Notes: a model not told the origin generated them from the letters alone. Positions 13,259 to 55,726 are shown, numbered from the stretch's first letter. The stretch: 64,000 nt of DNA from Candidatus Parcubacteria bacterium (GCA_021731405.1 JAKFXN010000005.1:105892-169891), one strand, 5' to 3'. A program made the numbers and translations.

Positions 13259-13366
13259 TGACAAATAATAGATAAAGCCGGACAAATATAGCAGTCTGCC
13301 AAAGAAATAATAAAACCTCACCACATGCTGGCAAGGTTTTATAACCCTTAGTAAAATCAATATTAA

Positions 13367-18719: not shown

Positions 18720-18797
18720 TAAATGAAATAATGAGCGTAGCGATTATATTGAATTTAGTTCCTAATTTTCTCCATTACTAGAGAAAATTACTGGAAC
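18719..18797. ncRNA. Conserved structured intergenic element, copy A (hairpin-motif family), lying between the ABC ATPase stop and the FtsX start codon.
   Basis: TTAAATGAAATAATGAGCGTAGCGATTATATTGAATTTAGTTCC-TAATTTTCTC-cattacta-GAGAAAATTA-CTGGAAC. The outer stem GTTCC/GGAAC and the 10-bp inner stem are shared with copy B, and the inner stem shows compensatory changes between copies. Confidence 0.5.
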
Positions 18798-33700: not shown

Positions 33701-36700
33701 TCTACCCCATTACACGACACCGCCAACAAATCCCCTGAGGTGGTTTCGTAACTTAAATCAAAGCCACGTTGTAATGTGTCTGGTATAGCATCTTCAAGCT
33801 CATACACATCTCCCCACGAATCGCTATTAGCATCGTATATTTGCACATTCATGTCGTTGTCCGTACCAACGGTACCTAATGCATACTCAGCTCGAGTTGG
33901 TGAAGCCTTGAGCTCTGTCCAACGTATCTGTGCACCAACACTAGCTGCAGTTCCAGCGGCGCTCCAAGACGTTCCGTTCCACAAACGATATCGCGGAGCT
34001 TGTCCGGTTCCTTCTCCATAGGCCATCAACACTTCATTCACGATTGAAGTAATTTGGGCACTACCAGCATCTGTCTCGATACTATCAAGGACACCAGTCT
34101 CAAACTGTTCTCCAGTTGTTTGATGCCACATAGACACCGTAATAGCAGTGTCTACCGTAAAGCTATACGGGTCGGAATACTCGGACCAATTATTTGCACC
34201 ACCCGGATCGCGTGCTCGCACTCTCCACCAGTAGGTATTGCCGTTTGTAAGTGCTGATTGTAGTGTATAGCGAATTGTTTCACCTGAATTAAATGGTGTC
34301 GTATCTCCACCAGTTATGGTGTTTGAAAAACCAGCATCAGCACCTGAGTTAAAAGTTGAAGACGAGGTAAAAGCGTAGCTACTAGATAGCTGAACCTCAT
34401 ACTCAATTGAATCATTTTCTGGGTCAGTTGAAAAAAATGTTAGAGCTGGTGTAGTGGTAGCAACTTTAGCATTATCAAACGGCTGAACTTGTGAAGGAAT
34501 TTCAATTGTTTCAGACCACTCCACCGTCCAATCGAGCAGTCGTGGCAAAGTCGCGTTGCCAGTAAAACCAGCTACAATGCGAAGTTCATTGTATGTAGTA
34601 GTATTTAAATCAGCTAAAGACACAGGTGAGCTTGTAAAGCCACTACTGTTTCCCGCCAAGGCTACATCTGGAACAAGCGCATAGGTATCTCCTGCCACTA
34701 AGTACTCAATGTAGTAGCGAATTGCTCCCGAGCTCACATTATGGGTAAAAGAGAAATCTCCCCAAGCATTACCACTTGTTCTATCATCGTAATCAATCAC
34801 TGACGACGTAGTTGTACCTGCAGTAAAGCCTGATTCAATTCCAACATCGTTACTGCTAGTTGAAGTGACCAGATCAACAAAATTATTAGTAGCAAATTGA
34901 CTACCAGTGGTCTGGAACCAAGTTGTAATCGTATTTGAGGTGTTAATGGTTACGCTATAAGGAGTAGACCAATCACCGTACTCGCCTGAACCCGACACAT
35001 CTTGTCCACGCACTCTCCACCAGTAGGTATTGCCGTTTGACAGAGCGGTGGCTGACTCAAAGCGGATTCTTTGTCCGCTTGTGAATTCACTTTTTTGAGT
35101 CGGTTGGAGCAGGTTGGTAAATGCAGCAAAATTACTGACTGAATCAGTACTAATATCTGGTGTGCCAAAATTGACATCAGTATCTACTTGAATCTGGTAC
35201 GCAATTAAGTCCCCTACTTCATCGGTGGCTGCAAATTCAAACCACGGTGTTGTAGATGCAAGGCGCTCATTATCAAACGGAGCGTATAGCTCAGGCGCTA
35301 CAGGCGGTGCATTTGTAATAAGGCGGGGATAATTTGAGTATGTATTAAACAGAGACCCGTCTTCATACACCATACGGAAACAGTAATTGGTGTTTGACTC
35401 GGCATTATTATCTTGGATGACAAAATCCCACTCTGATTCTTCACCTACCGGTAGATCATTTTGATTCTCGCGAGTTGGGTTTTCAGTTTCGTATGTTTCA
35501 GGGTTGTCCGATGAAGACAAAAGAGTTGTGGGGAGCAATCTTCCGTCACTTATGAGCTCTTCACTAGACACTCCATAAAAACCCGTTGGATTTGATTTAT
35601 TATTGTAGGTAGTTGCGAGCCAAGTTGCACTTCGTGCAACGTTAGAAAGAGTAATTTCATCAACCAAACCATTAAAAGAGCGAGCGGCACCAAATGGATC
35701 TCGACCAATAGTGAGTGCGTCGATAGTTGCAGTTGCGTGCGTTACCGCATTTGTTCCACTAGCCACACCGCTTCCAGTATGAGCATACATAGTTGCTGTT
35801 GTGGGTTGAACCACCAAAGAGGCCATAAACCACTGATTGGTTGGATAAAGTGGACCCCCAACCCAGCTGTAGGTATTAACGGCATCTCGCCAGTGATAGC
35901 CAAGCCTTGTTCCAGCACTATCCACATTCATACCATTAGTGAGGGTTCCTCGTGACATCAAGAGTCCATCATATGCTCCTTGGGCACCATCCGCGTTCAA
36001 CCAAATAGACCAAGTGGAGGTAAGCATGTTCTGATTCATGTTGGTAGTGATATGTTCATCAACACCATCGTGATCAATTGCCCGCCCCACCACTCCAGCG
36101 AGCCTATCTCCTACTTCGAGGTTAACAGCTGTACCAGCGTTGTTTCCGGTACTATCAATAAACTGTGGAGCACTGGCAGTTGGGCTTTGATCAAGGTGAA
36201 ATACCGCCAAAAAACCATTGGTCCACACATTATTTCGACCATAGGTAGCTGAGACTGAATACCCCGACGCGCCTGAATTACCATAGTAGACAAAAAACTC
36301 TGAATCAGTTGTTGAGGATACATTAGCCTTAAAATGTAACTCTCCGGTTTTTGCAGAGGTATCTATTGCCACGAGCTCATAAGGAAGTTCTGTTTCTCCA
36401 TCACTTTCAGTGATTCGAATATCATCACCGTCGACCTGCACATTACTGAAAAAAGCATCGGGAAAATCGTCTAGGTTTAGATAGACTGGGAAATTTGTTT
36501 GGTCACCGGTGACAAGACCACTATCTATTGTCACTTTTACACGCCTATCCCAACTGCCACTATACCAACCGTCTCCGACTGCGGGATTTTCAAATCCCCG
36601 CCATAGCGCAGTAGTGGAAGACGTGTCGCCCACATCAGACCAAACTAAGGAGTTACTGCAGGTCAGACCTTCAGCATACTGCAGCTTAAAGGCTTCTGAA

Positions 36701-39700
36701 AAAGCCGGCAACTCGACATTTTCACCCATAAGTGACATACGTAGACGAATCACATCATCTGCATTAATTGCCATCACAGAAGTAAGTGGTGCATTTTCTG
36801 CAAGATCAGTCGCTCCGACTGGCCAGACATCTGTTGGGGTCAAGAAGCTTCCATTTACATACCAACGATAATTGTTCTGCGAAAGTTTTGGCTCGCGAAC
36901 CCACGCCAAGGTCCACTCTTCAAGTGAAGCAGACTCACTTCCGAGTGTAGTAAGTGTCGCCTCAAGACATATTTGGTCATAGGTTGTGGTTGAAAGCCCA
37001 GTAAGGTCGATTGGTGAGTTAGTCACATCAAATCCTGCACCATTACCAGAGAGTGCACCATCAGAAATATACGCATCACAGGTTCCAACATTAGAGTATT
37101 TGATACGTACTTTTACATCAGTACCAAACGGTTCAGTAGTTGAAAACGAGACATCACCCCAAGTTGGCTGATTTGGTACCGCTGTAAAATCAATCGGTGG
37201 AGTTTCAACTACCCCCTCAGAAAATTCAAATTTCTTAGAAACAATGTCATACATTTCATACGGAGTAGCAATAACAGATGAAGGGCTTGTTTCTAGTAAC
37301 TCTTCTGTAGACCATGACGAACCATTCCAAGCTGAGGCATTGAGGTCATCAGTCACATCATCAAGCGCTGCTATTATGATGGTTCCATCGCCTGCTCGTG
37401 CGGTCTGTACCCAAAACGAATCCTGCATGGTGCCAATTGTAGCTTCTGTACTGTATGCACTTGAGGTAGCTGAACGATAGCGTACATTTCCAGTATCACT
37501 ATATGGTGCCATCAAATAGTCACTGCGACCTGGAGCAATTTCAAATGCACACTCGATAGGTCTTGCGGTGTCTATATTGCCATCTATGTCTAACTCCACA
37601 AACGTACTCCATACACCCCCATCCCAGCGTAAGACCCCAACATCGTTGTCGGTATCAATATAACAAAGGGCAATTTTGTCTGAACTCGGATCTGCGGTCA
37701 GTCGACCAAATTCGAAGTCGTCACCAATGGCTTGCGTGGCATTAGCACTAAACTCAGTCCCATTCCAAGTAGTATAAAAGATAGCTGGATTTGCGTTGTC
37801 ACTCACAGTGATAATCGCCTGATCTCCTGAAGATTCATACACTACAGACATACCCTCTCTAGCTACAAGTGCAGATGAGCCGATAACTCGACTTTCTATC
37901 CACGCACTTCCATCCCAGACCAAAGCTTCGTACTGAGTACCAGTGTCACGGACCACCAAAATCAATTCATCTGAAGCAGGGTCAGAAGCAATTTCAAGGA
38001 AGTTACAGTTATTAGCTGAACTAACAGTAATTGAACTCGTTGCAGACCAAGTTGTACCGTTCCATACTCGATATACTGGATTTGGACCATTACTACAAGA
38101 AACAGCAATTGCGTCACCCGAAAGACTTTCATATCCAACTGCGACACCTCGATAAGCGGCGCTCGTGACAACCGAAGAAAGGAGGGTCAGATTTCCCCAT
38201 GAGCTCGTAGAAGCACTGTATATCTGAGCGTAGGCATCGTTTGCGGAATCAAGCGTGACCATTGCATACTCATCACGACTGACTGCCGCTGATGTACGTA
38301 CCCAATTGATAGTACCGCTTACTGCCTGCGCACTACCTTCAAGTCCCCAGTTTGCACCGTTCCACAATCTGTATCGTGGAGTTGTCACCGAGCCTTCGCC
38401 ATATGCAATGAGGACTTCAGAGCTTTCAGTGGCATCAACTTGTACACGATCAGCGCCACTGGAAACAGTTCCGACAAGCGAGTCTCCTTCAAATTGCCCA
38501 CTGTACGACTGGAACCAGCTAGGTGCCGACGCAGCCATGTCAACAGTAAGACTTTGGGTAGTAGACCAATCTCCGTATTCTCCTGAACCCGTCACATCCC
38601 GCGCCCGAGTTCTCCAGTAATAGGTAGTGAGATCAGTAAGAGCGTCTCCAGAGCTAAGTTGTAGACGAATTATATTATTTTCAACAAATGGTGATAGGTC
38701 TGTTGAGGATGAAGTATTAAAGAACTCAGAATCGACTGATGAATTAAATGTTGTCGATGCTGCAAAGCCAGTACTGGTAGAGATAGAAAATTCGTATTCT
38801 ATATTTGATGTACCGTCAGGATCGTTAGCTTGAAAATCAAAAAATGGTGTCGTTGACGCAAAGCGAATATTATCAAACGGAAGATTATAAGTTGTTGGAG
38901 CATCGGGTCTAAAGTCGATTTCTGCTTTCTTCCACATTAGAAGTTGTCCATCTGTAGAATCATTAAGCGTTCCTGCAGCTCCCTCCTGCTGAACAGTTAC
39001 CGTAATCACGTCTCCTATCAAGAGGTCTTCAACCACCATTACTAACGCGGAAGAAGACTCGGAATGCGCATTTTGGTTTCTTATGAAATGAGATTTGGTT
39101 TGCGCACCACTAATTCCAGTACCATTTTTTAGTACTGTTACTCTACTGTTTGCTCGTGTCACTCCGCCAGTGAGTGCATCATTATATGAAAGTAGGTAAT
39201 CCCCATCTGAACCGATTGTAATTTGGTGACTATTACTTGAAGTCGAGTGGGTGAAGAGAGAAGAATCGTACGCATCTCTGCTCGTCCATTGAATTGCTGC
39301 GGCTGCAGCAGGGTTCCAGTTTGTCCCTCCAACAACTGCGGTTCCGCGCAATGCAATAAACTCTGTCGAAGGCATTTCACGCACCAAAACGGAACCAAAG
39401 AACCCGGAGGTAACTGTTACTGTTCCGGCGTTTCCTTCCCGCAGTGCAGTTAGGGTAAGGACTTGGTTTGTAGTGGTTGCTACGACAATACCCGACCAGT
39501 GTATGGAACCTTCACTATCTGATTCAGTTCCAGGCGCCTGAGTGTATCCTTGCTTAAATTGACCTCCAGAGACTAAGGCCCCATCTAACCTGACTTGACC
39601 TGTGATGTTGGTATTGTTTGCACTACTTGTTATCGGAATATTTACTTGTACAAAGTAAGTACCTGGATTTGAAATAATAATCTGTTCAGGATTCACTGAA

Positions 39701-42785: not shown

Positions 42786-44360
42786 TTACTTCAGAATTGC
42801 CTTTACATCATTGATTTCCTTTTCAATCAAGGTCTCTGAAACTTCGAGTGCTTGATTGAGTCCTTCCACTGCTTCTCGCTCACTTTTTGACAATCGCTTT
42901 CGTTTAGTAATCATGTTTACTTGGTCATAGATTTCATCTCGCAGTGCTGAGAAAATTTTCTCCATTTGATCTTGAACCTCACGTGTTTCTCGACGCAACT
43001 TCTCTTCTTTTATCTTAAGTTGTTTTCTTTCATACCAGATAAATATTGCCATCAAAAGGATAATAACAAAGAGGAAGAAGATGAGTAGGTTGCCGGGAGT
43101 CAAGAACGACCAGAAAGATTCTTCTTCAAGCACCTCAGCTGGTTTTATCCAGCCAGCCGTGATGAGTACCGCCTTGTTACTCTCTCGAATATTTCCAGCC
43201 TTGTCATGTGCAACTACTTTTACCGTGTAGGTGCCATCTTCAAGTTCACCAAGCAAATATCCGAGCAGTGCTTCATCTGGAGTTACTCTAAATGGCTCCT
43301 TGTCTGCAATCGTAAGCTCATAGAAGTCTATGCCTGAAATTTTATCTATCGCTTCAAATACAAGGAGTGGGAATGACGACGGTGTACTGCCAGTTCGTAC
43401 GCCAATTTCAAATGGTTCTGGAGGAATGGTATCAATCTGAAGTTTTCGATTGAGCGTTACTCCCCAACCAACTTGGTTCTTAAATCTAATACTAAGATAC
43501 TGTACTCCATCGACAATGATGTCTTTTGTGATTCTGAATTCATCTACTGGCGGTTCGAGTACTGAATCGGGATTGAGACTCGGATCGTTTTCACTTGAAG
43601 TTGCCATTTCTATTGCAACTGCATTTACGTCAAATGGTAGTGTCCAAGTAAATAGTCCTTCAGTAGTGTTGTACCACACTTCAGGGTCAAGGAAGGCTGG
43701 TGAGCCAACTTCTGGAGCACGTGGCGGATCTCCGAAAATAAGCGCTTCTTCACTATCATCTTCTTCATCGGGCTCTGGCGTATTTGGGGTAGGTGTTGGT
43801 GTCGGAGTTGGGGTAGGTGTTGGTGTCGGAGTCACAGCAGCTCCAATGGTAAAGTTGCTTGGGGAGGAAGTCTGATATACGTCGGTGCCGCGACCGTCTG
43901 CCGCTAGTACTGAAGCAGCACTAAAGCTAACAGCGGCTGTTCCTGCTTTTAATGTTCGAAACGTTACATTGATAAGGTTCGAGGTTGCAGAAAATGGGGC
44001 TGGGCTACCACCTCCGAAGCTTACGGTACCGGCTGTATTAGAAAAGGTTGGCTCTACAGTCCAAAGTGAGAAGGCGGAACCATCTTTTGTGATACTCACA
44101 ACTGAGAGAAGTGTTGGGTCAAACTTGAGAGTAGCCTCAACTGCATTAATGTTTTGACCGGCAGGTAGCACGCGTACCGCAGCGGTAAATGTCTGCCCTC
44201 CAGTATAAGAGCCCGTGCTTGGGTTCAATTGCAAAGTGGCAGCACTCGCAGTAAGTGCGCTCAAGAAAAATAGTACACTTACCGCAAGCAGACACAGAAG
44301 CTTTACAGCCACTTGTTCAACTTTATTATGTAAATGAATGTGTAACATACGTGATTTCAA
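42786..44360 (-). CDS. Anchoring-scaffoldin-like protein: signal, cohesin-like domain, (TP)n linker, Ig-like domains, a C-terminal TM and a coiled-coil cytoplasmic tail. Paralog of 8762-10489.
   Basis: ATLQLNPSTGSYTGGQTFTAAVRVLPAGQNINAVEATLKFDPTLLSVVSITKDGSAFSLWTVEPTFSNTAGTVSFGGGSP then TPTPTPTPTPTPTPNTPEP. TM LIFFLFVIILLMAIFIWY. Tail ...KRKRLSKSEREAVEGLNQALEVSETLIEKEINDVKAILK is conserved with the tail of 8762-10489. Confidence 0.65.
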   Translation of the reverse strand: MKSRMLHIHLHNKVEQVAVKLLCLLAVSVLFFLSALTASAATLQLNPSTGSYTGGQTFTAAVRVLPAGQNINAVEATLKFDPTLLSVVSITKDGSAFSLWTVEPTFSNTAGTVSFGGGSPAPFSATSNLINVTFRTLKAGTAAVSFSAASVLAADGRGTDVYQTSSPSNFTIGAAVTPTPTPTPTPTPTPTPNTPEPDEEDDSEEALIFGDPPRAPEVGSPAFLDPEVWYNTTEGLFTWTLPFDVNAVAIEMATSSENDPSLNPDSVLEPPVDEFRITKDIIVDGVQYLSIRFKNQVGWGVTLNRKLQIDTIPPEPFEIGVRTGSTPSSFPLLVFEAIDKISGIDFYELTIADKEPFRVTPDEALLGYLLGELEDGTYTVKVVAHDKAGNIRESNKAVLITAGWIKPAEVLEEESFWSFLTPGNLLIFFLFVIILLMAIFIWYERKQLKIKEEKLRRETREVQDQMEKIFSALRDEIYDQVNMITKRKRLSKSEREAVEGLNQALEVSETLIEKEINDVKAILK

Positions 44361-44373
44361 GGTACTAATTAAC

Positions 44374-44838
44374 TTATGCTTGGGTCTTACGTTCTTGTTT
44401 TACTCGTAAGCGCACTCGTTCTTTTTCTGAGGATTTCAGAAGAGGCAAAATGAGTATCAAAACTCCGTTTTTAATTTTCGCTTCTGCTTTTTCTATCTCA
44501 ACACTCTCGGGCAAAATAATGCGACGATAAAAATCTCCCCAAACACACTCCGAAGCGAAGTACGCTCCCTGCTCAGTGCGTTTAGGAAACACGATGTACT
44601 CAGGTCTAATTCTTCTTCCTTCAATGAGCACAATGTCAGCATCACCCTCGATAGAAACGTTGACGTCATTCATATCCGCTCCAGCTGACTGTGCGTAGAT
44701 GACAATTTTATTTTCAGTTTGAAAAACATCAACGTCAAGTTGAGCTACTTTGTCTACCGCGGTTTCTTCGGACTCAGACTGCAAAGAAGACTGCCCAGAA
44801 CGAACACCTCTATTTTTTAGTCTCTGTAGAAAGGACAT
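44374..44838 (-). CDS. Small heat-shock protein of the Hsp20/alpha-crystallin family.
   Basis: 154 aa with an alpha-crystallin-domain-like core (...VNVSIEGDADIVLIEGRR...) and a C-terminal IKNGVLILILP. A TATAAT-like box sits just upstream of the ATG on the minus strand. Confidence 0.8.
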   Translation of the reverse strand: MSFLQRLKNRGVRSGQSSLQSESEETAVDKVAQLDVDVFQTENKIVIYAQSAGADMNDVNVSIEGDADIVLIEGRRIRPEYIVFPKRTEQGAYFASECVWGDFYRRIILPESVEIEKAEAKIKNGVLILILPLLKSSEKERVRLRVKQERKTQA

Positions 44839-44988: not shown

Positions 44989-45162
44989 CCAAATGAGTAA
45001 AGAAGCATAGTGAAGTCTATATCTTTATCCAGTCCAGTTTAAATGAGTAGACGAGCGTAGCGACTACTACGAATTTAGTTCCCGATTTGTCCTCCTAAGG
45101 CAAATCGCTGGAACTCGAAGTAAAGAAGCATAGTGAAGTCTATATCTTTATCCTGTCCAGTT
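44987..45162. repeat. Two direct repeats of about 44 bp flanking element B: R1 at 44987-45039 and R2 at 45120-45162. R2 includes the last four codons and the stop of the dockerin gene 45148-47058.
   Basis: GTAAAGAAGCATAGTGAAGTCTATATCTTTATCC(A/T)GTCCAGTT occurs twice, about 133 bp apart, with the hairpin element in between. Confidence 0.6.
45043..45118. ncRNA. Conserved structured intergenic element, copy B (same family as 18719-18797).
   Basis: TTAAATGAGTAGACGAGCGTAGCGACTACTACGAATTTAGTTCC-CGATTTGTCC-tcctaa-GGCAAATCG-CTGGAAC. The inner stem sequence differs from copy A but complementarity is preserved. Confidence 0.5.
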
Positions 45163-47058
45163 AAACAGCAATATAGAGAAGTCAGTTAAGTTAACCTTGC
45201 TGTCACTATTAATGTCAGCTGACGGATCAGAATTACCGCCATCGGAATTCCACCAGAAAAGTAGAATTGAGAAGTCAGTTAAGTTAACCTTGCTGTCACG
45301 GTTCAAGTCGGCATTAATAGGGCGCGCAGCTGATTGTCCCACACCGTAAAACGTAAAGTTTGAAAAGTTTGTTGAGGCACCAGAGGCCTGTACTGCCCGT
45401 GCGCGCGTTTTATAAGTACCAACAGAGAAGCCGCTGGTGTTTATTGTTGTTGACCATTGCCCGTTTCCGTCAGAAGTAACGGTTAGACTTTGCTTTGAAG
45501 CGGCTGACCCTTCCTTTTCATTTTCTATAGTTATTGTTGCGTCTGGTAGTGCATACCCGCTTAGAGTGAGTGTACTTCCTGGAGTAACAGGGTCAGGAGA
45601 AACTTTAATAGTTGGGGCAAGGTTGATGTTTGAAAGCGCTGAAGTTCGAGCACCAATAACCGTAAATGAGGTACTAAAGGTAGATGAGCGCACTTGCGCA
45701 GTATCGACCGCATACACACCAAAGGTATACGCACCGCGCGCTATCTCATCAACAGTAATTGAATACACTCCCTGATTATCTGCACGTTCACTTGTTACCG
45801 CCTTCCCATCAACAAGTGCAAAGACCTCACTTCGCGGAAAAGCGTAACCAGAAATAATTACCCGAGCATCTCCACTTCGATACGGTCCATCGGTACTTTC
45901 AAATCCTCCGCCAGCGGTGTTACCTGAACCTCCACCCGAACCACCACCGCCGCCGCCACCCGAGCCACCCGAACCAGAGGATCCACCTTGAGCAGGTGCA
46001 ACTCCGTCAGAGCTTCCTGTCTCCCCTCCGGAACCTCCTCCGTCTCCGGTACCATTATTACCCGTACCGGTACCATCACCATCTACTTCTCCTTCGGTAT
46101 TGGATTCACCGGTTGGAACAGCACTAACGGCAAATTCGATTAAGTAATCATCGATGTTAAAGTTTCCTTCATCGTCAATACAGCGGACATAAAATTGTTG
46201 AATCGTATCTGGAAGAACTGAGACTACAACCGTGTGAAAAATAAGGCCCGTACCTGTAAAGGTGTTCGGCATTGAGGCATAACTTTGTCCTGGTGTAAGA
46301 CTATACTTGCAAACTGCCAACTCATCAGTCTGAAGGAAAAGTTCGACACTCAAAGTAACACCGGTTACCGTACTACTCGGCGCACCATTAAAGCGATCAG
46401 GCGGAATCTCTTCTGTCGTATCGATTGGTCCAACACCAACACGGTTTACCAGCGAGATAGAAAAACTTGCATCTGCTACCAGTCCGCCATCATACACTTC
46501 GAGGCGTACTTTTTTAGTACCCGTAGTTGAGGCGTTTATTACTGGTTCTTCATCGCCAATTATTGTAGTAGTACCAGTTGTGGTGGCAAACGTTTCACTA
46601 AACTCAAGAGATTTTGAAGTATGGTTTCCAATCTTCAATACCAACTCAGAACCAGAAGTGATTCCGGTCACGGGGTTAAGTGTGTACTTAATTGAACCAG
46701 GTGAACCGGGAAATATTTCAACCATATCCACCCCTGGAGCAAGAGTGCTGTCAGAGCTTCTTAAAGATCCATCTACCAACAATTCAACATTTCGCTCAGC
46801 TGCAAACGTACTAGTACTTAGGACTTCAAAACCAGCAGGAAGCGTGACTTCAAAGTACCCTCCCGGAGAAACATTAGTGCCAATCTTAAACGAAAGGGTG
46901 TGATTAGAAGCTCGTAGTGGCGCCGAATCAGAGATAGTGTCTTTATATTCATTGATATTGCGAGCGAACAAGATATCTGGAAAAAACAGAAACAACGTCA
47001 GCATCAGAATACCAACCGCTGCCAGTAAAAACGCCCAGGCTTTAACCACTAAAGTCAT
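45148..47058 (-). CDS. Secreted dockerin-bearing protein: signal peptide, an N-terminal beta-sandwich shared with the WxL-like proteins, a Gly-rich linker, Ig-like domains and a C-terminal type-I dockerin.
   Basis: The track start at 47211 would overlap the upstream ABC gene by 86 nt. The internal Met MTLVVKAWAFLLAAVGILMLTLFLFFPDILFA (about 47058) is a better signal peptide. N-terminal motif SDSAPLRASNHTLSF. C-terminus DLNRDSKVNLTDFSILLFWW...DINSDSKVNLTDFSILLFNWTG. Confidence 0.7.
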   Translation of the reverse strand: MTLVVKAWAFLLAAVGILMLTLFLFFPDILFARNINEYKDTISDSAPLRASNHTLSFKIGTNVSPGGYFEVTLPAGFEVLSTSTFAAERNVELLVDGSLRSSDSTLAPGVDMVEIFPGSPGSIKYTLNPVTGITSGSELVLKIGNHTSKSLEFSETFATTTGTTTIIGDEEPVINASTTGTKKVRLEVYDGGLVADASFSISLVNRVGVGPIDTTEEIPPDRFNGAPSSTVTGVTLSVELFLQTDELAVCKYSLTPGQSYASMPNTFTGTGLIFHTVVVSVLPDTIQQFYVRCIDDEGNFNIDDYLIEFAVSAVPTGESNTEGEVDGDGTGTGNNGTGDGGGSGGETGSSDGVAPAQGGSSGSGGSGGGGGGGSGGGSGNTAGGGFESTDGPYRSGDARVIISGYAFPRSEVFALVDGKAVTSERADNQGVYSITVDEIARGAYTFGVYAVDTAQVRSSTFSTSFTVIGARTSALSNINLAPTIKVSPDPVTPGSTLTLSGYALPDATITIENEKEGSAASKQSLTVTSDGNGQWSTTINTSGFSVGTYKTRARAVQASGASTNFSNFTFYGVGQSAARPINADLNRDSKVNLTDFSILLFWWNSDGGNSDPSADINSDSKVNLTDFSILLFNWTG

Positions 47059-47125
47059 CTTATCTATAAGTATACCCCGCACAAATACAAACAATATGTC
47101 TGGTCGTGAACAACTTGTAACTCTT

Positions 47126-48892
47126 TTATTCAACCAAAAATCCACCAGCTTGGTGTTGCCACAACTGAGCGTAGTGACCTTGTTTCTGAAGCAGTGTCTC
47201 GTGAGTACCATCTTCAGTTATTGTTCCTTCTTCAAGAACGATAATCCTATCCATTTCTCGGAGCGTCGATAGTCTATGAGCAATAGCAATAACCGTCTTA
47301 CCTTCCATCAAAACATGGAGTGCTTTTTGTATTTCTCGTTCGCTGGTGCTATCGAGGGCAGAAGTAGCCTCGTCTAGGATAAGAATAGGAGCGTTTTTGA
47401 GCATTGCCCGAGCAATAGCTACGCGCTGCTTTTGTCCACCCGAGAGCTTTACTCCCCGTTCTCCCACAAGGGTGTCATACTTTTGTGGCAGTCGCATGAT
47501 AAAGTCATGTGCCTCGGCCTTCTTGGCGACTGCTATAATTTCGTCCGAGGATGCGTCAGGTCTCCCGTAGGCAATATTTTCTCTAATAGTCCGATGAAAT
47601 AATGACGGTTCTTGCGGTACCAGTGCAATTAACTCGCGAAGTGAGTCTTGTGTGACACTAGAAATATCTTGGCCATCAATACATATTCGCCCCTTTAAAA
47701 TAGCGTGTTGTCGCAAAAGGAGTGACACAAATGTACTCTTTCCTGCTCCAGAAGAACCAACCAGTCCAATTTTTTGGTGTGGCAAAATTGTCAGGTTAAA
47801 ATTTTCAAACACAGCCAAATCATCAAATTTAAAAGTGACGTCTTTCCAATCAATACCACCGCCTTCTACTTTTAAGGGTGAGGCTGGGATCATATCAACT
47901 ATCTCGTACGGTAGCAGGATGTCATCAAGTCCTTCGCGTAATTCTCCGGCAGTCCTTGCGGTGGCGTTAAAGGCTCTTCCGATAAAGAGTAGTGAGCCAG
48001 TAATATTTGAGATTAGAGCTAATACAAGCACAAACTCACCGGTAGTGAGCATACCTTCGCCCCACTGCGTTACAAGCCGCCAAAACATGAGTGAAGCAAA
48101 TACAAATAAGAGCAGGCTGTTTATCGTCAAAAGTTTCTCGGTGTACAGCCAGTTCCGTACCCCTTTTTCAAACTTGTTTTGCGTCAATTTTTGTACTTCA
48201 GTGAGCTCATAGTCTTTCCGCACGTATTGGCGTGTAGTATGCACGTTTGAAAGCACATCCACCAAATACCCTTGTAGCAAGGAACCAGCTTCAGCATTTT
48301 CTTTCGCCACAATAGCTTTTGTCTTAGCGAAGCGTTTATTAACTACAAAGAGTACCGTAAGGAGTCCAATAAAAATAATCCCCGACTGAGAATCTACAGT
48401 TAAGATGAGGGCAAATGTCACTAAAAAGGTAACGAGGACACTCAAATGTGCCCACAAAATATCTGGAATCATCTCATCAAACGCTGAGGTGACGTTTTTT
48501 ATTTTATTGGTAATTGAACCGGCGAATCGATCAATGAAGTAACTATGACTATGCCTCATAATGTACGTCATTAGGGTATTAGTAGCCGTCTGATTACTAC
48601 CAACAGTGAGGTGCGCACCTGCATATCCACTCACTCGATATATAAGCTGAACTAGTAGTATAAAAAATGGATATAAAAGTCCCCACATTAAAGCCGCGTT
48701 AAGGTCGTCCGCTTCGACAGCATCAATGATGAGCTTAAAGAAGTAGCTGGTTGATGCTCCTGCGGCTGACGCAATCACTACCGCGATTACTGCCAAAGCT
48801 GCCCAGCCCTTGTGCTTACCTATAATGTATATGAAAAAACGATACGGAGTATTTGGAATTGTTGTTTCTCTGGCGGAGGTGAGTGATTTCAT
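47126..48892 (-). CDS. ABC exporter with fused N-terminal 6-TM domain and C-terminal NBD (MsbA/type-I exporter family).
   Basis: 588 aa. Walker A GSSGAGKST, signature LSGGQKQRVAIARAML, Walker B ILILDEATSALD. N-terminal half hydrophobic. Confidence 0.85.
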   Translation of the reverse strand: MKSLTSARETTIPNTPYRFFIYIIGKHKGWAALAVIAVVIASAAGASTSYFFKLIIDAVEADDLNAALMWGLLYPFFILLVQLIYRVSGYAGAHLTVGSNQTATNTLMTYIMRHSHSYFIDRFAGSITNKIKNVTSAFDEMIPDILWAHLSVLVTFLVTFALILTVDSQSGIIFIGLLTVLFVVNKRFAKTKAIVAKENAEAGSLLQGYLVDVLSNVHTTRQYVRKDYELTEVQKLTQNKFEKGVRNWLYTEKLLTINSLLLFVFASLMFWRLVTQWGEGMLTTGEFVLVLALISNITGSLLFIGRAFNATARTAGELREGLDDILLPYEIVDMIPASPLKVEGGGIDWKDVTFKFDDLAVFENFNLTILPHQKIGLVGSSGAGKSTFVSLLLRQHAILKGRICIDGQDISSVTQDSLRELIALVPQEPSLFHRTIRENIAYGRPDASSDEIIAVAKKAEAHDFIMRLPQKYDTLVGERGVKLSGGQKQRVAIARAMLKNAPILILDEATSALDSTSEREIQKALHVLMEGKTVIAIAHRLSTLREMDRIIVLEEGTITEDGTHETLLQKQGHYAQLWQHQAGGFLVE

Positions 48893-48918: not shown

Positions 48919-49722
48919 CTATTTCACACAGCGAAAACCAACCGCTGCTCCACTAAAGTTTGGGGGTGTTTGCGCATGTACCGTATAGGTACCAGCATCA
49001 TCTTTACTGCCATAAAATCCACCACGAATAATTCCAAAAGCACCTGTTCCACTTGTCCAAAAATAATCCCCTTTTATTTCAGTGCTTGTCTCTTCTTGTG
49101 TGATGGTCGCCATTCCCGAACTATCAACTTGGCTCACATATCCAGTCCCTGGTAACTCTCTTCCCTGATACACCCCCTCAATGACATCATCGCTCACCCA
49201 CTCCCACACATTACCAACCGTATCTTTTACGCGAGCGGCGGAAATACATGTTTCATACTCACCAGCTGCGCTAATGTCGCCACTTGCAATATTACAACTA
49301 TCTTTTGTCGTTCCGAGGGAAAATTGATACCACTCACTCGCTGAGGGAAGTCGTTTGCCTGCTCTCGTACAAAGTATGGCTGCTTGCTCTCTGTCAACAA
49401 ACCGCCATGGTTCATTACCCACCTCACTAGTAGGTACACAATCACTTTTTGAGAGATTTATTTCTGTATCATACTGACTTGAAGGATTGACGACGGTACA
49501 ATCTTCTTGAACTGATGCTTCAAACTCATCTACGCACGTAAATGTCAGAGCCCCGGATACCGGTATCATCCCCGCAGGACAAATTTCTGTCTGTGTTCCA
49601 ATGAGCGAGGCTAGCATAGTACCCCCTTTTCCAGTCAATGTGTCAGTAGCATCAATACTAAAAGTCGTAAGAATAAGGGCTACAAGAACCCCGCCACCAA
49701 TTGTGAAGACCTTCTTATACAT
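48919..49722 (-). CDS. Secreted formylglycine-generating-enzyme (FGE)/SUMF1-family domain protein, paralog 1 of 3.
   Basis: N-terminal TM/signal. C-terminal ...DYFWTSGTGAFGIIRGGFYGS...GFRCVK is characteristic of the FGE-sulfatase (SUMF1/EgtB/PvdO) fold. Multiple conserved Cys. Confidence 0.7.
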   Translation of the reverse strand: MYKKVFTIGGGVLVALILTTFSIDATDTLTGKGGTMLASLIGTQTEICPAGMIPVSGALTFTCVDEFEASVQEDCTVVNPSSQYDTEINLSKSDCVPTSEVGNEPWRFVDREQAAILCTRAGKRLPSASEWYQFSLGTTKDSCNIASGDISAAGEYETCISAARVKDTVGNVWEWVSDDVIEGVYQGRELPGTGYVSQVDSSGMATITQEETSTEIKGDYFWTSGTGAFGIIRGGFYGSKDDAGTYTVHAQTPPNFSGAAVGFRCVK

Positions 49723-49760
49723 ATATATGTATATTGTACCGCAAAGCTGCAGCGAAACCT

Positions 49761-50579
49761 TTATTTAACACACCGAAATCCAATGGCGGCACTAGCAAAA
49801 TTCTGATCAGTTTGAGCATGTGCAGCATATATTCCGCCATCCGCACGACTACCATAAAATCCTCCGCGAATAAGCGTGAAGTACCCTGTTTCTTGTGACC
49901 AAAAATAGTCATCATGATAAATAGTATTTGGTTCTGAGGTAGTCAAAAGTGCAACTCCAGAAGAATCGGCGAGAGCAACATATCCTTCAGCTGGTAAAGT
50001 CCGGTTTTGATACTGCCCATCTTTGATGGTTTCACTGGTGTGCTCCCAAACGTTACCCACCATATCAAACACACCAACGCCTGAAGTACAGTCTTTAAAC
50101 TGGCCTGTTTTTGCCAACTGACCATCTGTATTACAAACAGCACCATCTGTACTACCAATTGCTGCCAAGAACCATTCTTCTGCCGAAGGTAGTCTCTTCC
50201 CCGTCTTTGCGCATAGTTCTACTGCTTGCGGTCGAGCCACTGAAGTCCATGGAAGAACCCCTTCTTCAGACACTGGTACACAATTTTTTTGCGAAATATT
50301 ATGTGCGGTATCTACCGTACTGGCTGGTGCTTCAATAATACAATCCTGACTTGGACTCGCTTCATACACATCGATACAAAAACTACCGCGTTCACTTTCT
50401 ACCAGCTGCATCCCAGCATCGCACTCTTCATTATTAATATTTGTAGCAAATATACTTAAAGCAGTTTGCGAGCCACGTAGGGTATCAGTGGCGTCAATAG
50501 TAAACGAGGTCAACAAAATAATCCCGAGCGTAACGAGTGAAAACCTGAGGCTCTGTGTGAGTATTTTTTTCATGCTCAT
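49761..50579 (-). CDS. Secreted FGE/SUMF1-family domain protein, paralog 2 of 3.
   Basis: Same architecture: signal, Cys-rich N-terminal half, ...YFWSQETGYFTLIRGGFYGS...GFRCVK. Confidence 0.7.
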   Translation of the reverse strand: MSMKKILTQSLRFSLVTLGIILLTSFTIDATDTLRGSQTALSIFATNINNEECDAGMQLVESERGSFCIDVYEASPSQDCIIEAPASTVDTAHNISQKNCVPVSEEGVLPWTSVARPQAVELCAKTGKRLPSAEEWFLAAIGSTDGAVCNTDGQLAKTGQFKDCTSGVGVFDMVGNVWEHTSETIKDGQYQNRTLPAEGYVALADSSGVALLTTSEPNTIYHDDYFWSQETGYFTLIRGGFYGSRADGGIYAAHAQTDQNFASAAIGFRCVK

Positions 50580-50594
50580 ACCAATAAGTATACG

Positions 50595-51410
50595 TTAGAG
50601 AATATCCCGTACGCAGCGAAAGCCCACACCAACCGCAGAGAAGTTGAGCGGTACTGCTATATTTTGTGAAAAGATTCCGCCATCTTCCCCACTCCCGTAG
50701 AACCCGCCACGAATAATTCCCTGTACTCCCGTGCTGTTTACCCAGGCATAATCTTCCCCAAAACGAGCGTCTGGCTCAGTATGAGTAGTCAGTACTACTC
50801 CATCGCTATCAACGAGCGTTATATACCCAGACTCTGGGAGACTTCTGTCTTTGTACGTACCGTCTGTTACCGTGTCGTCCATCCACTCCCAGACATTACC
50901 AACCACATCATGGACACCAGTATTGGTTACACAATTTGCAGTTCCGGTAAGTTCTAATGTTTGACTCAAAAAACAAGCGTCTAGTTCAGTCTGCCCTAAG
51001 GCGACTTTGTACCATTCTTCGTTGGTCGGCAAGCGCTTACCCGCCCGAGCACACAACTGTTGAGCTTCGGTATAGGTCACATATTTCCAAGGATCAAGGC
51101 TTGGAGCAGAATGTGCACGGCAAGCCTCAGCCCCAATATTTACTTGTGTATCTACTTCACTTTTGATTTGTTCATACGGACACGAAGTATGTGGACTCGC
51201 TTCATAGACATCCATGCAGACACTGTGAGAGCCAAACAATATAGGTACTTCGTGTAGGCCACATACGCCCTGTGACTCCAAGACGAGCCCCGAAAGCCGA
51301 CCACTAACTCCAGCCAGTTCGTCACTCGCTTGTATCCCTAATGTAGAAATAATAAGAGCCCCGACTCCAACCAAAATCGACTTAGGCAGCGCTTTCATTT
51401 CTCTGAACAT
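50595..51410 (-). CDS. Secreted FGE/SUMF1-family domain protein, paralog 3 of 3.
   Basis: ...DYAWVNSTGVQGIIRGGFYGS...GFRCVRDIL. Tandem with the other two copies. Confidence 0.7.
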   Translation of the reverse strand: MFREMKALPKSILVGVGALIISTLGIQASDELAGVSGRLSGLVLESQGVCGLHEVPILFGSHSVCMDVYEASPHTSCPYEQIKSEVDTQVNIGAEACRAHSAPSLDPWKYVTYTEAQQLCARAGKRLPTNEEWYKVALGQTELDACFLSQTLELTGTANCVTNTGVHDVVGNVWEWMDDTVTDGTYKDRSLPESGYITLVDSDGVVLTTHTEPDARFGEDYAWVNSTGVQGIIRGGFYGSGEDGGIFSQNIAVPLNFSAVGVGFRCVRDIL

Positions 51411-51810
51411 ATATTTCTTTTACCTCTTTTCTCCGTGCACGCATAAAATCTAGAATATAGTTGAGTACAATGAGTGTTAGTAAAATAAAAAGAATGACGC
51501 TCAATATAAAAGTTGAGGTATCAAACGGTGCGGTCGATTGAGTATTCCCGACCGAGACAGCGATGAGTCTTTCTTTTGCCTCAAGCTCTGTCTCGAGTTC
51601 AGTAATGCGACCTGTCAGTTGATTGAGTTCATTTGGCGCCACTCCGACAGTCACCCCAACTACGTTTGCAAGATGTTGCTCAGTTGTATTTGAAAGTAGC
51701 ACGGTCTCTTCAAACAAAAGTCCACTATCAAACACCAGGGCAATCGCCAAAACACTCACCGTTACACGCAGAAAGCTATGGTAGAGGCTATGTTCAAGCG
51801 AATTTCTCAT
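51382..51810 (-). CDS. Small bitopic membrane protein with an N-terminal TM, a coiled coil, a C-terminal TM and a basic stretch.
   Basis: 142 aa. TM segments VTVSVLAIALVF and FILSVILFILLTLIVLNYIL followed by RARRKE. It overlaps the upstream FGE gene by 29 nt. It occupies the position of the small cell-surface protein in Csc-type clusters. Confidence 0.45.
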   Translation of the reverse strand: MRNSLEHSLYHSFLRVTVSVLAIALVFDSGLLFEETVLLSNTTEQHLANVVGVTVGVAPNELNQLTGRITELETELEAKERLIAVSVGNTQSTAPFDTSTFILSVILFILLTLIVLNYILDFMRARRKEVKEIYVQRNESAA

Positions 51811-51828: not shown

Positions 51829-52935
51829 CTAAGCAAAAAGCAGGAGGAGTATGATAAAGAATAGAGCAGTTACCGCCAGCATTGAGATAAACACCAGCAA
51901 AACCGGAAATTGGTTTTGCTGTCTTGAGCGAACAAGCCTCCTAGTAACTCCAGAGCTCGCAACTGCCATACTACGTTTTACGTACACCTTGACGGTCACA
52001 TAAATAAGTAAGAAGAGAACGATAAGACCAATCAATGCAGGAGTAACAATATTCATTGGCAAGATCCAGAACGTTACCGTACTTGAAATAGTATTGATAC
52101 TTCCTTGTTCTCCATACACAACGCTTAAGAGTGCTTCATACCGCCCAAAGCCTGGACTCTCATCTGTCCAGTTGATGTCAAACTCACGAGTCCCTTCGGG
52201 GTTACTCGCTGTCTTCGGAAAAACACTGGCTTGGTTGTCATTAAACTTCAGCATTGCCACTTGCTTACCGAACATATTTTTTACTTCCAGTGGACCAATT
52301 GGCTTTATGAGTGTATTACCCTCATTTTCAATATGTACATTAAAATCAACATCAGTTGTTCCGTATATGTACTGTGACGTTGAAAATTGGCGGATACGGG
52401 CGGACTCATACGCATCACCAGCAATTCTAATACTAATGATATTTGCTACTTCATACCCAATACCTGCACCAGACGCACGGAGTTTTGGTGGTTCCGCCGA
52501 AATTATCAAGCTTCCGAAGTGACTTCCTGGACTGACTTCAAGCGGTACATTCATCACAAAGGTATATTCTTTTGTTTCCCCCGGTTGAAGCTGTATTTCC
52601 TCAGCTGAAAGGGTAAGCCAGTCACTAATTTCGTAGCCTGTTTTTTCTGAACTATCGGTTGAAAATATCGGGACTCCACCGTCTCGTACCCCAATAATGT
52701 CACGAATAGAAAGATAGAAAGTTTTCTCAACAGTATTGAGGTTAGATATCTCAACACTAAATTGAGCAGTAGCCCCAGGTTCAAATTGCTCTGCCGGCTC
52801 TATAATTGCGGGACTTATTCCAATACCGGCCGCGGCCTGGGCAAGCGCGAAAGAGCTTGACCCGGCGTAGAAAAATGAGAGTAAAAAGAGTGCTAATGCA
52901 AATAAAACTGGGCGTGAAAAAATGTGGGTATTCAT
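51829..52935 (-). CDS. DUF916-like cell-surface protein with a signal peptide, Ig-like ectodomain and C-terminal TM helices. Paralog of 14490-15455.
   Basis: After the signal: AAGIGISPAIIEPAEQFEPGATAQFSVEISNLNTVEKTFYLSIRD, which resembles the (F/I)xVxP...PGxxQxLxVxLxNxT opening of DUF916 proteins. C-terminus WILPMNIVTPALIGLIVLFLLIYVTVKVYVKRS. Start may be 52974 or 52935. Confidence 0.5.
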   Translation of the reverse strand: MNTHIFSRPVLFALALFLLSFFYAGSSSFALAQAAAGIGISPAIIEPAEQFEPGATAQFSVEISNLNTVEKTFYLSIRDIIGVRDGGVPIFSTDSSEKTGYEISDWLTLSAEEIQLQPGETKEYTFVMNVPLEVSPGSHFGSLIISAEPPKLRASGAGIGYEVANIISIRIAGDAYESARIRQFSTSQYIYGTTDVDFNVHIENEGNTLIKPIGPLEVKNMFGKQVAMLKFNDNQASVFPKTASNPEGTREFDINWTDESPGFGRYEALLSVVYGEQGSINTISSTVTFWILPMNIVTPALIGLIVLFLLIYVTVKVYVKRSMAVASSGVTRRLVRSRQQNQFPVLLVFISMLAVTALFFIILLLLFA

Positions 52936-52990
52936 ATATAAGTGTCGCCTTATAGTAACACTCCTAAAACGCAAGTTTGTAAATTTATAA

Positions 52991-53026
52991 ACACAAAAAG
53001 AACCGCCGAAGCGGTTCTTTTTGTGT
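52991..53026 (-). terminator. Rho-independent terminator downstream of 53041-54132.
   Basis: AAAAAGAACCGC-CGAA-GCGGTTCTTTTT hairpin with flanking A/T runs. Confidence 0.75.
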
Positions 53027-53040: not shown

Positions 53041-54132
53041 TTAGAAAGTAGGTGTAGCGATGTACATGAGAGTTGTCGTGTAGTCATCTCCCGCTTCCTG
53101 AAGTGGTGAAATCTGAACTCGGTATCCGATTGTAGCAGAACCGACATCCTGTGTTACACCATCAGCTGGGTCGTTGTGAGAGAAAATAATACGTGGAGTA
53201 GTACTTGCCGCGACCCATTTATCCCCGCCACCTGAGGTGAATTCAGAACCGTTAAGGTTTGAGTCATCAGAGGTAAGACCCCAGTGCCCCCAAGTGTTTT
53301 CAAGCAAGAGAGAGTTTGTAGGTGCAGACCACGCAGTAGGGGTGTTGGTATAAGCACCATTGATGAAAGCATCAATATCGGCACCTGTACTGGATAGCAA
53401 GTTCTGATCCTGTTGTACTGTTACAACGAATCCGTTTGCAGCGTTTGTTTCTACCGTAAGCTCTTGAGCTAGGGTATACACATCACCAGCATCTAGAATT
53501 CCGAATGGAATTTCTGTAGCTGTTGAGGCGCCACTTGTTGTTGTGGCATTAACTGTTGTTGAAGTAGCTGTCCCTGCAACAACGAAGTCGAAGGTTGTTT
53601 CTACCACAGCAGTCACTGTTACATAATCAACGATAGCTACTCGTGTACGTCCTGTGTCTGTCGTAGCATTCGCAATTGAAATTGTGAATTCGTATGACAT
53701 CACTGGTGCAGGATTTCCTACAATGCCAGGTGCCAACACTACAGTCACAACATCTGTTGATGTTGCCGCAACGTTATCAAAGGTAAGTGTTTGTGCGCCT
53801 GCTGCGAAGTTACCGATTGTAATCGGAGCTCCACCGTTCAGTCGTACCGTCAGGTCACCTGAGACAACTGTGTTTACATCTGTGAACCCTGACGGGAAAG
53901 TAATTACGTAATCACTAGTTGAGGCTACAGATGAACCAAGCGGAATTTCAAAACTGAAATTGTGCCCTGAGAGCGCACTTGGACCTGAGTCTGTTAAAGT
54001 ATTGCTAATCTCAATAAGGTTAGCTGCTTGTGCGGTTGTGTAGACTCCGACTGACCAGAGAACTACTGCACACGCAACGAGCATCGCGACTACCCGGTGC
54101 GTAAAGCCAACGTGTGTTGGTATTACGAACAT
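53041..54132 (-). CDS. Secreted Thr/Gly-rich surface protein, possibly WxL-like. Paralog of 11651-12799.
   Basis: Signal anchor then AQA|ANLIEISNTLTDSGPSALSGHNFSF. C-terminal ...NTWGHWGLTSDDSNLNG...TTTLMYIATPTF. Adjacent to the DUF916-like and small membrane protein genes. Confidence 0.55.
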   Translation of the reverse strand: MFVIPTHVGFTHRVVAMLVACAVVLWSVGVYTTAQAANLIEISNTLTDSGPSALSGHNFSFEIPLGSSVASTSDYVITFPSGFTDVNTVVSGDLTVRLNGGAPITIGNFAAGAQTLTFDNVAATSTDVVTVVLAPGIVGNPAPVMSYEFTISIANATTDTGRTRVAIVDYVTVTAVVETTFDFVVAGTATSTTVNATTTSGASTATEIPFGILDAGDVYTLAQELTVETNAANGFVVTVQQDQNLLSSTGADIDAFINGAYTNTPTAWSAPTNSLLLENTWGHWGLTSDDSNLNGSEFTSGGGDKWVAASTTPRIIFSHNDPADGVTQDVGSATIGYRVQISPLQEAGDDYTTTLMYIATPTF

Positions 54133-55717: not shown

Positions 55718-55726
55718 TATTTTATC

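Follow-up and report, generated by a model that had tools for sequence, protein, structure and literature searches.

FGE-fold binding modules (FGE, formylglycine-generating enzyme), the variable proteins of diversity-generating retroelements (DGRs) and, since 2026, the Pam pili of the candidate phyla radiation (CPR) have been described separately from one another. Here we analyse a stretch of 64,000 nucleotides from a Candidatus Parcubacteria bacterium (GCA_021731405.1, JAKFXN010000005.1:105892-169891), referred to throughout as the window, in which three tandem genes (48919-51410, minus strand) encode small exported proteins of the FGE/C-type-lectin fold. Names attached to homologs identify the organism as a member of the Patescibacteria/CPR of Paceibacteria (Parcubacteria) type. 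We favour, at a probability somewhat above even, the view that these paralogs bind a ligand without catalysing a reaction and serve as accessory subunits in a pilus or adhesion cassette of CPR bacteria, being derived from the DGR/phage module or sister to it and carrying a fixed binding face. What is new in the locus is a stand-alone, frozen, multi-paralog module of the DGR and phage type that forms a conserved part of a Pam-like cassette in a large uncultivated clade. Literature searches for FGE-like proteins linked to WxL/DUF916, to Parcubacteria or to patescibacterial pili found none.

For the cassette that surrounds the three genes, the closest systems are the WxL/Csc surface clusters of Firmicutes and the Pam operon. 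The Pam pilus is specific to CPR bacteria; its pilin starts with an N-terminal β-sandwich of nine strands, which a linker strand connects to a truncated Ig-like C-terminal domain, and the subunits assemble by donor-strand exchange (bioRxiv 10.64898/2026.03.03.709456). PamC and PamD are PapD-like chaperones anchored by a C-terminal transmembrane (TM) helix, no dedicated assembly platform was reported, and PamA carries an unexplained modification on Ser356 (bioRxiv 10.64898/2026.03.03.709456). For the three proteins themselves, comparison is with FGE (SUMF1) and pFGE (SUMF2), with DGR variable proteins such as TvpA, TaqVP, AvpA and Mtd, with the C-terminal domains of phage tail fibres and tail-collar fibres, and with PorK, GldK and GldJ, where a non-catalytic FGE fold is a structural or binding component of the envelope.

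Three exported paralogs of the FGE fold

A first-pass annotation of the window had proposed three tandem secreted FGE-domain paralogs, and the three open reading frames (ORFs) were indeed present on the minus strand. We numbered them by position: position 1 (50595..51410) encodes 271 aa, position 2 (49761..50579) 272 aa and position 3 (48919..49722) 267 aa. All three exceeded the gathering score of PF03781 (FGE-sulfatase; 23.3 bits), with 48.9, 59.4 and 41.1 bits respectively, and their pairwise identity was 38-45%. The Cys-rich N-terminal half that had been noted amounts to exactly eight Cys per paralog, seven of them within the first ~165 residues, and the C-terminal signature IRGGFYGS...GFRCV(K/R) was found in each of the three. 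Position 2 had 223 homologs. A family alignment of 59 members was used for the profile, for entropy and residue counts and for AlphaFold2 (AF2) modelling. Across 23 copies from 12 loci, the residues kept were Cys, Gly and the motifs CIDxYE, GNxWE and GFRC, which we take to include the Ca2+-site residues of FGE structures. A scan of contigs with a single peptide pattern returned 80 loci, of which 7 held true family members and the others generic FGE-domain proteins.

Each paralog had also been credited with a signal peptide. A hydrophobic N-terminal segment was seen in all three, followed by a polar, c-region-like stretch, TSFTIDA, with Ala at -1 in 59/59 family sequences. On the Kyte-Doolittle scale (19-residue window) the hydrophobic segments of the paralogs reached 1.7-2.15, compared with 1.9-2.25 for the signal peptides of the pilin-like and chaperone-like proteins of the locus and 2.5-3.1 for its genuine TM anchors. 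Since this hydropathy resembles that of signal peptides and not of anchors, and since the Ala at -1 is invariant, the N-termini are probably cleaved Sec signal peptides; the segment itself was thus observed, and its cleavage we infer from sequence. The first Cys of the paralogs falls at residue 48-53, outside any lipobox.

The ~18 residues that follow TSFTIDA, TDTLxGSQxALxI[LF]A, are unusually conserved in the family and are missing from its fibre-fused relatives, in which a fibre stalk occupies that place. We read this peptide as a likely attachment element and not as a β donor strand. Use of the N-terminal peptide as a donor strand for the pilin groove was considered and disfavoured, its hydrophobic positions (34, 41, 44 and 48) being spaced as in a helix and not alternating; the AF2 model places a weak helix at residues 40-48.

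Catalytic residues, relatives and the putative binding face

Alignment of the 59-member profile to human FGE (SUMF1) by hidden Markov model showed C336 replaced by Ser and C341 by Ala/Gly. The C336 equivalent is Ser in 56/59 members, the S333 equivalent is always aromatic, and no member (0/59) has any Cys between RGG and FRC. The loop of the C336/C341 region is shortened, relative to FGE, by a three-residue deletion. Human C365 (the GFRC Cys) and its partner C218 (in LCxxxGKRLP) are both retained. The best PDB sequence match was pFGE (9e-10), which likewise lacks the catalytic pair. Likeness to FGE and pFGE therefore comprises PF03781, the CIDxYE and GNxWE motifs and the C218-C365 disulfide pair, whereas the window family differs in lacking the C336/C341 pair, in the loop deletion and in six extra conserved Cys. 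It differs also in setting: its members are exported by a CPR bacterium, in a pilus context, and no sulfatase partner was found in the window. The view of the first-pass annotation that these proteins do not serve sulfatase maturation is borne out by the loss of the catalytic Cys pair in 59/59 relatives, and so is its statement that no sulfatase gene lies nearby, no sulfatase domain occurring in any sizeable ORF of the window. On this alignment, the family members are most probably not formylglycine-generating enzymes. Because the catalytic residues are missing throughout the family, the database labels 'formylglycine-generating enzyme required for sulfatase activity' and 'SUMF1/EgtB/PvdO family nonheme iron enzyme' are misleading for it.

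Other catalytic chemistries were looked for as well. Among the invariant family residues there was no conserved metal-binding Cys pair or His triad. No DinB-like domain of the EgtB/OvoA/SenA type is present, as only a signal peptide and a linker precede the FGE-like domain of the ~270-aa proteins, and the NCBIfam models for EgtB, OvoA and SenA gave the paralogs 15-30 bits against cutoffs of 360-420. On the substrate side, the mature pilin-like protein, the chaperone-like protein and the small two-TM protein encoded upstream contain zero Cys, and no exported window protein has a CxPxR motif. The sole CxAxR in 20.6 k window residues belongs to a cytoplasmic ABC ATPase, and the four SxPxR motifs in window proteins are, by rough estimate, about the number expected by chance. 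The earlier suggestion that the paralogs might modify neighbouring surface proteins enzymatically found no positive support here, with no catalytic residues conserved and these three proteins free of Cys.

The AF2 model of the position 2 paralog, built on the 59-sequence alignment, reached a pLDDT of 92.6 and consists of an N-terminal helix (3-33), a low-confidence linker (31-50) and a globular domain (50-272). Foldseek against the PDB placed DGR variable proteins at the top (TaqVP, 5vf4, and Mtd, 1yu0-4; 1.6-3e-7), together with human, S. coelicolor and T. curvata FGE (~5e-7; TMq ~0.41), after which came pFGE, CalU17, ToxD and OvsA/EgtB; PorK, a ring protein of the type IX secretion system (T9SS), was matched at ~5e-5. 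Against viral models, phage proteins annotated as 'tail collar fiber' and 'tail fiber' were found at 2e-9 to 1e-5 with TMq of 0.5-0.62. In PHROGs, residues 55-271 aligned with the C-terminal half of phrog_11262 ('tail protein'; 5e-12). DGR variable proteins, Mtd included, and the tips of phage tail fibres thus resemble the model no less closely than FGE does.

The C-terminal domains of phage tail fibres and tail-collar fibres (phrog_11262, phrog_2889) are thus alike in profile and provide the best viral structural matches, but the window genes differ from them in residing in a cellular genome, within a conserved chromosomal surface-protein locus, in having no fibre shaft and in having no phage genes nearby. 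PorK, GldK and GldJ share with the family the use of a non-catalytic FGE fold at the envelope. They differ in that the match is weaker, the window family has no lipobox, PorK is larger (~440 aa) and CPR bacteria have no outer membrane; a Pfam sweep of the window revealed no T9SS genes. The first-pass annotation had likened the paralogs to binding modules of the GldJ/GldK type. A binding-module role is still the best reading, but PorK and GldK are more distant analogues than DGR variable proteins and phage fibre tips.

An exhaustive profile search of 1.84 billion representatives returned ~60 full-length clusters of ~270 aa. Beyond these, the module was seen to terminate far larger proteins and, in giant proteins, to occur as internal tandem arrays. 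The best-matching of these larger fusion relatives, P0298 (628 aa), consists of an N-terminal signal or anchor, ~350 residues of fibre-like repeats and then the FGE-type module. This module aligns with residues 53-272 of the position 2 paralog at 37% identity (E=6e-49) with all eight Cys aligned, an identity about as high as that among the window paralogs. The P0298 gene is located on a cellular contig (L090) near FtsZ, NrdD and ComEC, and the next genes downstream encode bAvd and a reverse transcriptase (RT). Its last 122 nt are duplicated 537 nt downstream as a pair of variable region (VR) and template repeat (TR). Of the 14 positions at which VR and TR disagree, 13 carry an adenine in the downstream copy, and the template repeat encodes RGFIRGGNWNNGASAGVFTLNLNNAPSNTNNNIGFRCAR. 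This pattern is the signature of a DGR. Genes for bAvd and RT also come after the gene of P0359 (951 aa), another fusion relative, and a third such relative lies on a contig too short for a verdict on a DGR.

Complete DGR cassettes (target, bAvd, TR and RT) were present in two CPR-like contigs, L090 (10001-13670) and L091 (6001-11291), their targets being fibre-like proteins with a terminal Cys-rich module of FGE type. L091 also holds several additional 23S_rRNA_IVP/Avd-like genes and a Y1 transposase.

The residues diversified in P0298 map to F241, G243, S244, D247, A252, H254 and F261-A265 of the window family. Across the 59 members, mean entropy at these VR-equivalent positions was 1.31 bits, compared with 1.79 bits for the whole domain; D247 is conserved in 59/59, S244 in 56/59 and G243 in 53/59. 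The C-terminus is nearly identical between homologs that are 81% identical overall. No TR-like repeat of the C-terminal segments was found in the window, where the only resemblance was the 72-77% similarity among the paralogs, and neither RT (RVT_1) nor Avd was found in window ORFs or among the annotations of related loci. Since the VR-equivalent positions are conserved and the window contains no TR or RT, the surface used for catalysis in FGE and diversified in DGR proteins is fixed in the window family. Such a fixed face would point to one conserved ligand. A local DGR acting on the window genes was considered and rejected for the window, which has no template repeat, RT or Avd.

The DGR variable proteins, with P0298 and P0359 among them, share with the window family the same fold, the C-terminal RGG...GFRC segment, which in them is the ligand-binding face, and the lack of the FGE catalytic Cys. 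The window family departs from them in having no TR, Avd or RT nearby and fixed instead of hypervariable VR-equivalent positions. Its members are moreover stand-alone proteins of ~270 aa, in which a conserved N-terminal peptide replaces the long fibre stalk, and they occur as one to three ancient paralogs within a pilus cassette.

The surrounding pilus-like cassette

All genes of the cassette lie on the minus strand. A small protein of 142 aa with two TM segments flanking a coiled-coil-like stretch (51382..51810), recognised as an ORF and by hydropathy and without a family match, is encoded immediately upstream of position 1. The start of position 1 overlaps its end by 29 nt, and the two genes are probably translationally coupled. 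Homologs of the small protein occupy the same position in nine related loci (L002, L005, L006, L009 and L085-L089) and follow the FGE gene in L007. Further upstream lies a putative chaperone of 381 aa (51829..52974), of WxLIP (DUF916) type and similar to PamC/PamD, which scored 29.6 bits with PF06030 (WxLIP_PGBD), above the gathering score of 27.3. Its layout comprises a signal peptide, a β-rich ectodomain and C-terminal TM segments at 300-335 and 354-381. Because the intergenic gaps measure 15-38 nt and the overlap 29 nt, the chaperone, small-protein and FGE-like genes probably form a tight, co-transcribed operon. Directly after the next gene upstream, which encodes the pilin-like protein, a strong, GC-containing 16-bp hairpin with T-runs on both strands (52991..53026) would act as a terminator or attenuator splitting the pilin gene from this operon.

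The pilin-like gene (53041..54132) encodes a candidate major fibre subunit of 363 aa with an AQA/A signal peptide. Its only family match was NF058581 (CPR_Pam_pilin_C), which was also matched by 38/47 members of the pilin family (best, 7.6e-8). In the AF2 model, exactly nine strands span residues 40-166 at pLDDT >90. Foldseek with this model recovered generic Ig-like pilins and adhesins (EbpB, BcpA, Saf, RbmA and BslA); no Pam entry was among its matches, the PDB copy searched holding no Pam structure. The family comprises at least 1303 homologs, all unannotated. Sequence searches of the PDB with the pilin-like and chaperone-like proteins gave nothing useful.

The cassette resembles the Pam pilus in the predicted domain layout of its pilin, in the weak match to NF058581 at the pilin C-terminus and in the Sec signal peptides on its parts. 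The putative WxLIP/DUF916 chaperone, with its C-terminal TM anchor, may be a further likeness to Pam, WxL and Csc systems, its layout agreeing with the published description of PamC and PamD. The window differs from the Pam operon in that FGE-like, dockerin and cohesin components occur only in the window-type cassette, in an NF058581 score below the cutoff and in its taxon, which is of Paceibacteria type and not Saccharimonadia or Microgenomatia. With moderate confidence we describe the cassette as Pam-like or WxL/Csc-like; formal membership is not established.

On the other side of the three genes, 26 nt beyond position 3, lies a type-1 ABC exporter of 588 aa (47126..48892; ABC_membrane and ABC_tran). 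The first-pass annotation had called it MsbA-like, and an MsbA-related model was indeed its best match, but at 336 bits it is far below the equivalog cutoff of 780 and is better described as a generic type-1 ABC exporter. It is followed by a dockerin-bearing surface protein (45148..47211; Dockerin_1 and Big_6), whose likely true start is at 47058 (Met52). Residues ~83-148 of this protein cross-match the N-terminus of the pilin in tblastn, and its ortholog in L002 has 636 aa. Next come an HSP20 small heat-shock protein (44374..44838; PF00011) and a membrane-anchored cohesin protein of 524 aa (42786..44360; Cohesin PF00963, 34.4 bits) with a TM segment at 415-446 and a cytoplasmic coiled-coil tail, which is the probable docking partner of the dockerin protein. 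A giant surface protein of 6967 aa (21769..42672), with Ig_Rha78A_N and DUF2341 as its only Pfam matches, closes the cassette, and its orthologs at the same position range from 5488 to 7578 aa. These neighbours (pilin, chaperone, dockerin, cohesin and giant protein) confirm that the paralogs belong to a surface-protein locus, as had been proposed.

Within this part of the cassette we also observed that HSP20, for which no export signal was noted, is always located between the dockerin and cohesin surface genes in all related loci. The intergenic region of ~310 nt between HSP20 and dockerin contains a 47-nt direct repeat (44996-45042 and 45119-45165; 96% identical, 123 nt apart), of which a weaker copy (76%) is found at 18719-18768, upstream of another gene; this sequence may serve in regulation or be a small mobile repeat. 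The giant ORF has internal repeats of ~2.3-4.4 kb.

We compared 14 FGE-bearing loci with 35-60% protein identity: the window, L002/L003, JGI 3300056388, L005-L011, L085-L087 and L089. The conserved order was pilin, chaperone, small two-TM protein, one to three FGE-like genes, dockerin, HSP20, cohesin and giant protein. In 13/13 loci whose sequence extends upstream, the FGE genes are directly preceded by one to three copies of the chaperone-like gene, and a dockerin gene was found downstream of them wherever downstream sequence exists. Copy numbers varied by clade. In one clade, a single pilin and a single chaperone accompany two or three FGE genes; in another, a single FGE gene occurs with up to two pilins and three chaperones. 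The first-pass annotation had suggested that the exporter might be functionally linked to the paralogs. It was present in 3/14 loci (the window, L002/L003 and L089), was absent by synteny comparison from L005-L011, L085-L087 and JGI 3300056388, and was found in L088, a locus with no FGE gene at all. Because only these three FGE loci carry the exporter and L088 has it without FGE genes, it is a lineage-specific insertion and not a core partner, and the proposed link is not supported. The functional partners of the FGE-like genes are instead the upstream Pam-like pilin and the WxLIP-like chaperone, an identification that goes beyond the earlier annotation.

A neighbour-joining tree of 23 copies grouped them by gene position and not by genome, resolving three orthogroups and a separate single-copy clade. 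Position-matched copies were 48-60% identical, compared with 37-43% across positions. The position 1 orthogroup is common to the window, L002, L006, L087 and L089, that of position 3 occurs in every multi-copy locus, and some lineages retain positions 2 and 3 alone. Because the copies cluster by position and not by genome, the triplication is ancient and has been maintained, which argues for non-redundant roles or a hetero-oligomer.

Two of the related loci deserve separate mention. L088 (Parcubacteria bacterium OLB19, GCA_001567365.1, 9156-14487) cleanly lacks the FGE-like genes, and its genes for the chaperone, the dockerin protein and the S24 peptidase are broken into two ORFs each; it is either a decaying locus or an error-prone assembly. 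L006 contains an insert between FGE copies 2 and 3 (10782-14052), made up of an opposite-strand Ham1/ITPase-like gene and three tandem EamA-like multi-TM transporters of ~290 aa, families that were assigned by reading the sequence.

Function of the paralogs and flanking features

Ligand binding is the function suggested by the fold, the relatives and the genomic context of the three proteins. Each would be exported by Sec, probably cleaved at I-D-A/T, and held at the pilus or at cell-surface machinery through the N-terminal peptide TDTLxGSQxALxI. The surface that corresponds to the FGE active site and to the hypervariable face of DGR proteins would then bind one conserved ligand, and the three ancient paralogs may represent three related specificities or the subunits of a hetero-oligomer.

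Several observations weigh against this view. In Ca. Mycosynbacter amalyticus, the pam operon as published includes nothing FGE-like (bioRxiv 10.64898/2026.03.03.709456). The pilin-like protein matches NF058581 with 27.4 bits where the cutoff is 55, and the match is confined to its last 35 residues. Its linker and all-β C-terminal domain were modelled at low confidence, as we would expect for the monomer of a donor-strand-complemented subunit. L088 keeps pilin, small protein, exporter and dockerin without any FGE gene, so that the FGE genes are dispensable there or the locus is decaying. FGE-fold proteins without the Cys pair, such as ToxD and CalU17, take part in biosynthetic pathways, and by analogy a catalytic or co-catalytic role is conceivable. 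PvdO is another such protein. Finally, if the N-terminus were an uncleaved anchor, the ~20-residue linker would keep the domain near the membrane, in a poor position for host contact.

Among the other explanations, a rather unlikely one is that the paralogs are not adhesins but structural parts, which would assemble close to the membrane into a homo- or hetero-oligomeric collar around the base of the pilus and act there together with the two membrane proteins encoded upstream, the chaperone and the small protein; PorK/GldK, an FGE-fold lipoprotein, has such a role in the type IX secretion ring. Such a collar would account for the presence of PorK among the fold neighbours (5e-5), for the co-transcription and translational coupling with two membrane proteins and for the short linker between the hydrophobic N-terminus and the domain. 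The fixed paralog order and the ancient orthogroups suggest a defined stoichiometry, lineages with one FGE gene have three chaperones and vice versa, and no dedicated assembly platform is reported in the Pam paper. However, DGR variable proteins and the tips of phage fibres match better than PorK does, and the nearest relatives by sequence form the distal ends of fibres and not base components. The paralogs have no lipobox, and their N-terminal hydropathy, together with an Ala at -1 that never varies, speaks for a signal peptide that is cleaved and not for an anchor. In another reading, which we regard as unlikely, the one to three paralogs would form an Mtd-like (pseudo-)trimeric receptor-binding head, joined by the conserved N-terminal peptide to a Pam-like donor-strand pilus or to a cohesin-dockerin-anchored fibre. 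A cellular pilus of uncultivated Paceibacteria would then have taken up a DGR/phage tail-fibre domain and 'frozen' it for host recognition. If true, this would reveal what sets host specificity in a large CPR clade, and also how a diversifying module can become a fixed adhesin. A new extracytoplasmic FGE-fold enzyme that modifies the pilin or neighbouring surface proteins seems to us quite improbable. ToxD and CalU17, both among the fold matches, set a precedent for it, the modification on PamA Ser356 is unexplained, and Asp247 is invariant and Ser244 nearly so in the former active-site segment. On the other hand, neither a Cys pair nor a His triad is conserved, the invariant residues being Cys, Gly and fold motifs, and the candidate substrates lack both Cys and CxPxR. 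Because the same positions are freely mutated in the DGR relatives, they would form a binding face rather than a catalytic one.

The remaining three explanations draw on the names, the relatives and the nearest neighbour of the genes. That the paralogs are active DGR variable proteins served by a retroelement outside the window is very improbable, even though their closest non-family relatives are verified DGR targets and DGR variable proteins are the top fold matches. No TR-like repeat was present in the window and no RT or Avd in the window or the annotated related loci, and the family varies less at the VR-equivalent positions than elsewhere in the domain, with the C-terminus near-identical between 81%-identical homologs. 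Much the same low probability applies to the paralogs being cargo or partners of the ABC exporter, a notion that draws some credit from their close spacing in the window (26 nt) and from the recurrence of this arrangement in L002/L003 and L089. The exporter is missing from 11/14 FGE loci and persists without FGE genes in L088, the N-termini of the paralogs are of Sec type, and in L006 an unrelated transporter set is inserted in the same region. Least probable of all, to the point of being almost negligible, is that these are canonical aerobic FGEs maturing a sulfatase encoded elsewhere in the genome, as the PF03781 domain and the database names would suggest; both catalytic Cys are missing in 59/59, the S333 equivalent is aromatic, the window has no sulfatase, and pilus and surface partners accompany the genes in every locus.

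To our knowledge, host recognition and attachment by CPR bacteria is largely unexplained beyond a few Saccharibacteria with type IV pili. Taken as fixed binding subunits, the paralogs would be candidates for host or ligand recognition in a large clade of Paceibacteria type, whose conserved Pam-related cassette contains cohesin, dockerin and giant surface proteins in addition. The cassette would then include a component without a described counterpart in Pam pili, namely a putative receptor-binding module in one to three fixed copies. The same module is diversified by retroelements in other CPR bacteria and is found on tail-fibre tips in phages, so that the paralogs and their DGR relatives offer a natural comparison between a frozen and a diversified binding scaffold.

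Directly upstream of the pilin-like gene, the window encodes a Y-family (IMS) polymerase (54452-55717, minus strand), a NUDIX hydrolase (55694-56200, plus strand) and an S24 (UmuD/LexA-like) peptidase (57567-58046, minus strand). This arrangement of IMS polymerase, S24 peptidase and NUDIX upstream of the pilin gene recurs in every long related locus, and the conservation of an error-prone-polymerase pair beside a surface locus is curious. Further on, a class F sortase (59157-59825, minus strand; 170 bits, above cutoff) adjoins a SpaA/choice-of-anchor C/DUF642 surface protein of 1303 aa (59879-63790, minus strand). These two genes make up a separate sortase-dependent surface system flanking the cassette and are syntenic in related loci.

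At the other end of the window, an ORF of at least 1877 aa (1-5631, minus strand) runs off the window start; it has an internal repeat of ~1 kb and no Pfam match. A second set of two dockerin genes (7297-8052 and 8762-10489) and one cohesin gene (13367-14497), all on the minus strand, follows it, and its dockerin repeats share DNA similarity with the dockerin gene of the cassette (45148-47211). Surface display through cohesin-dockerin pairs seems to be common in this genome.

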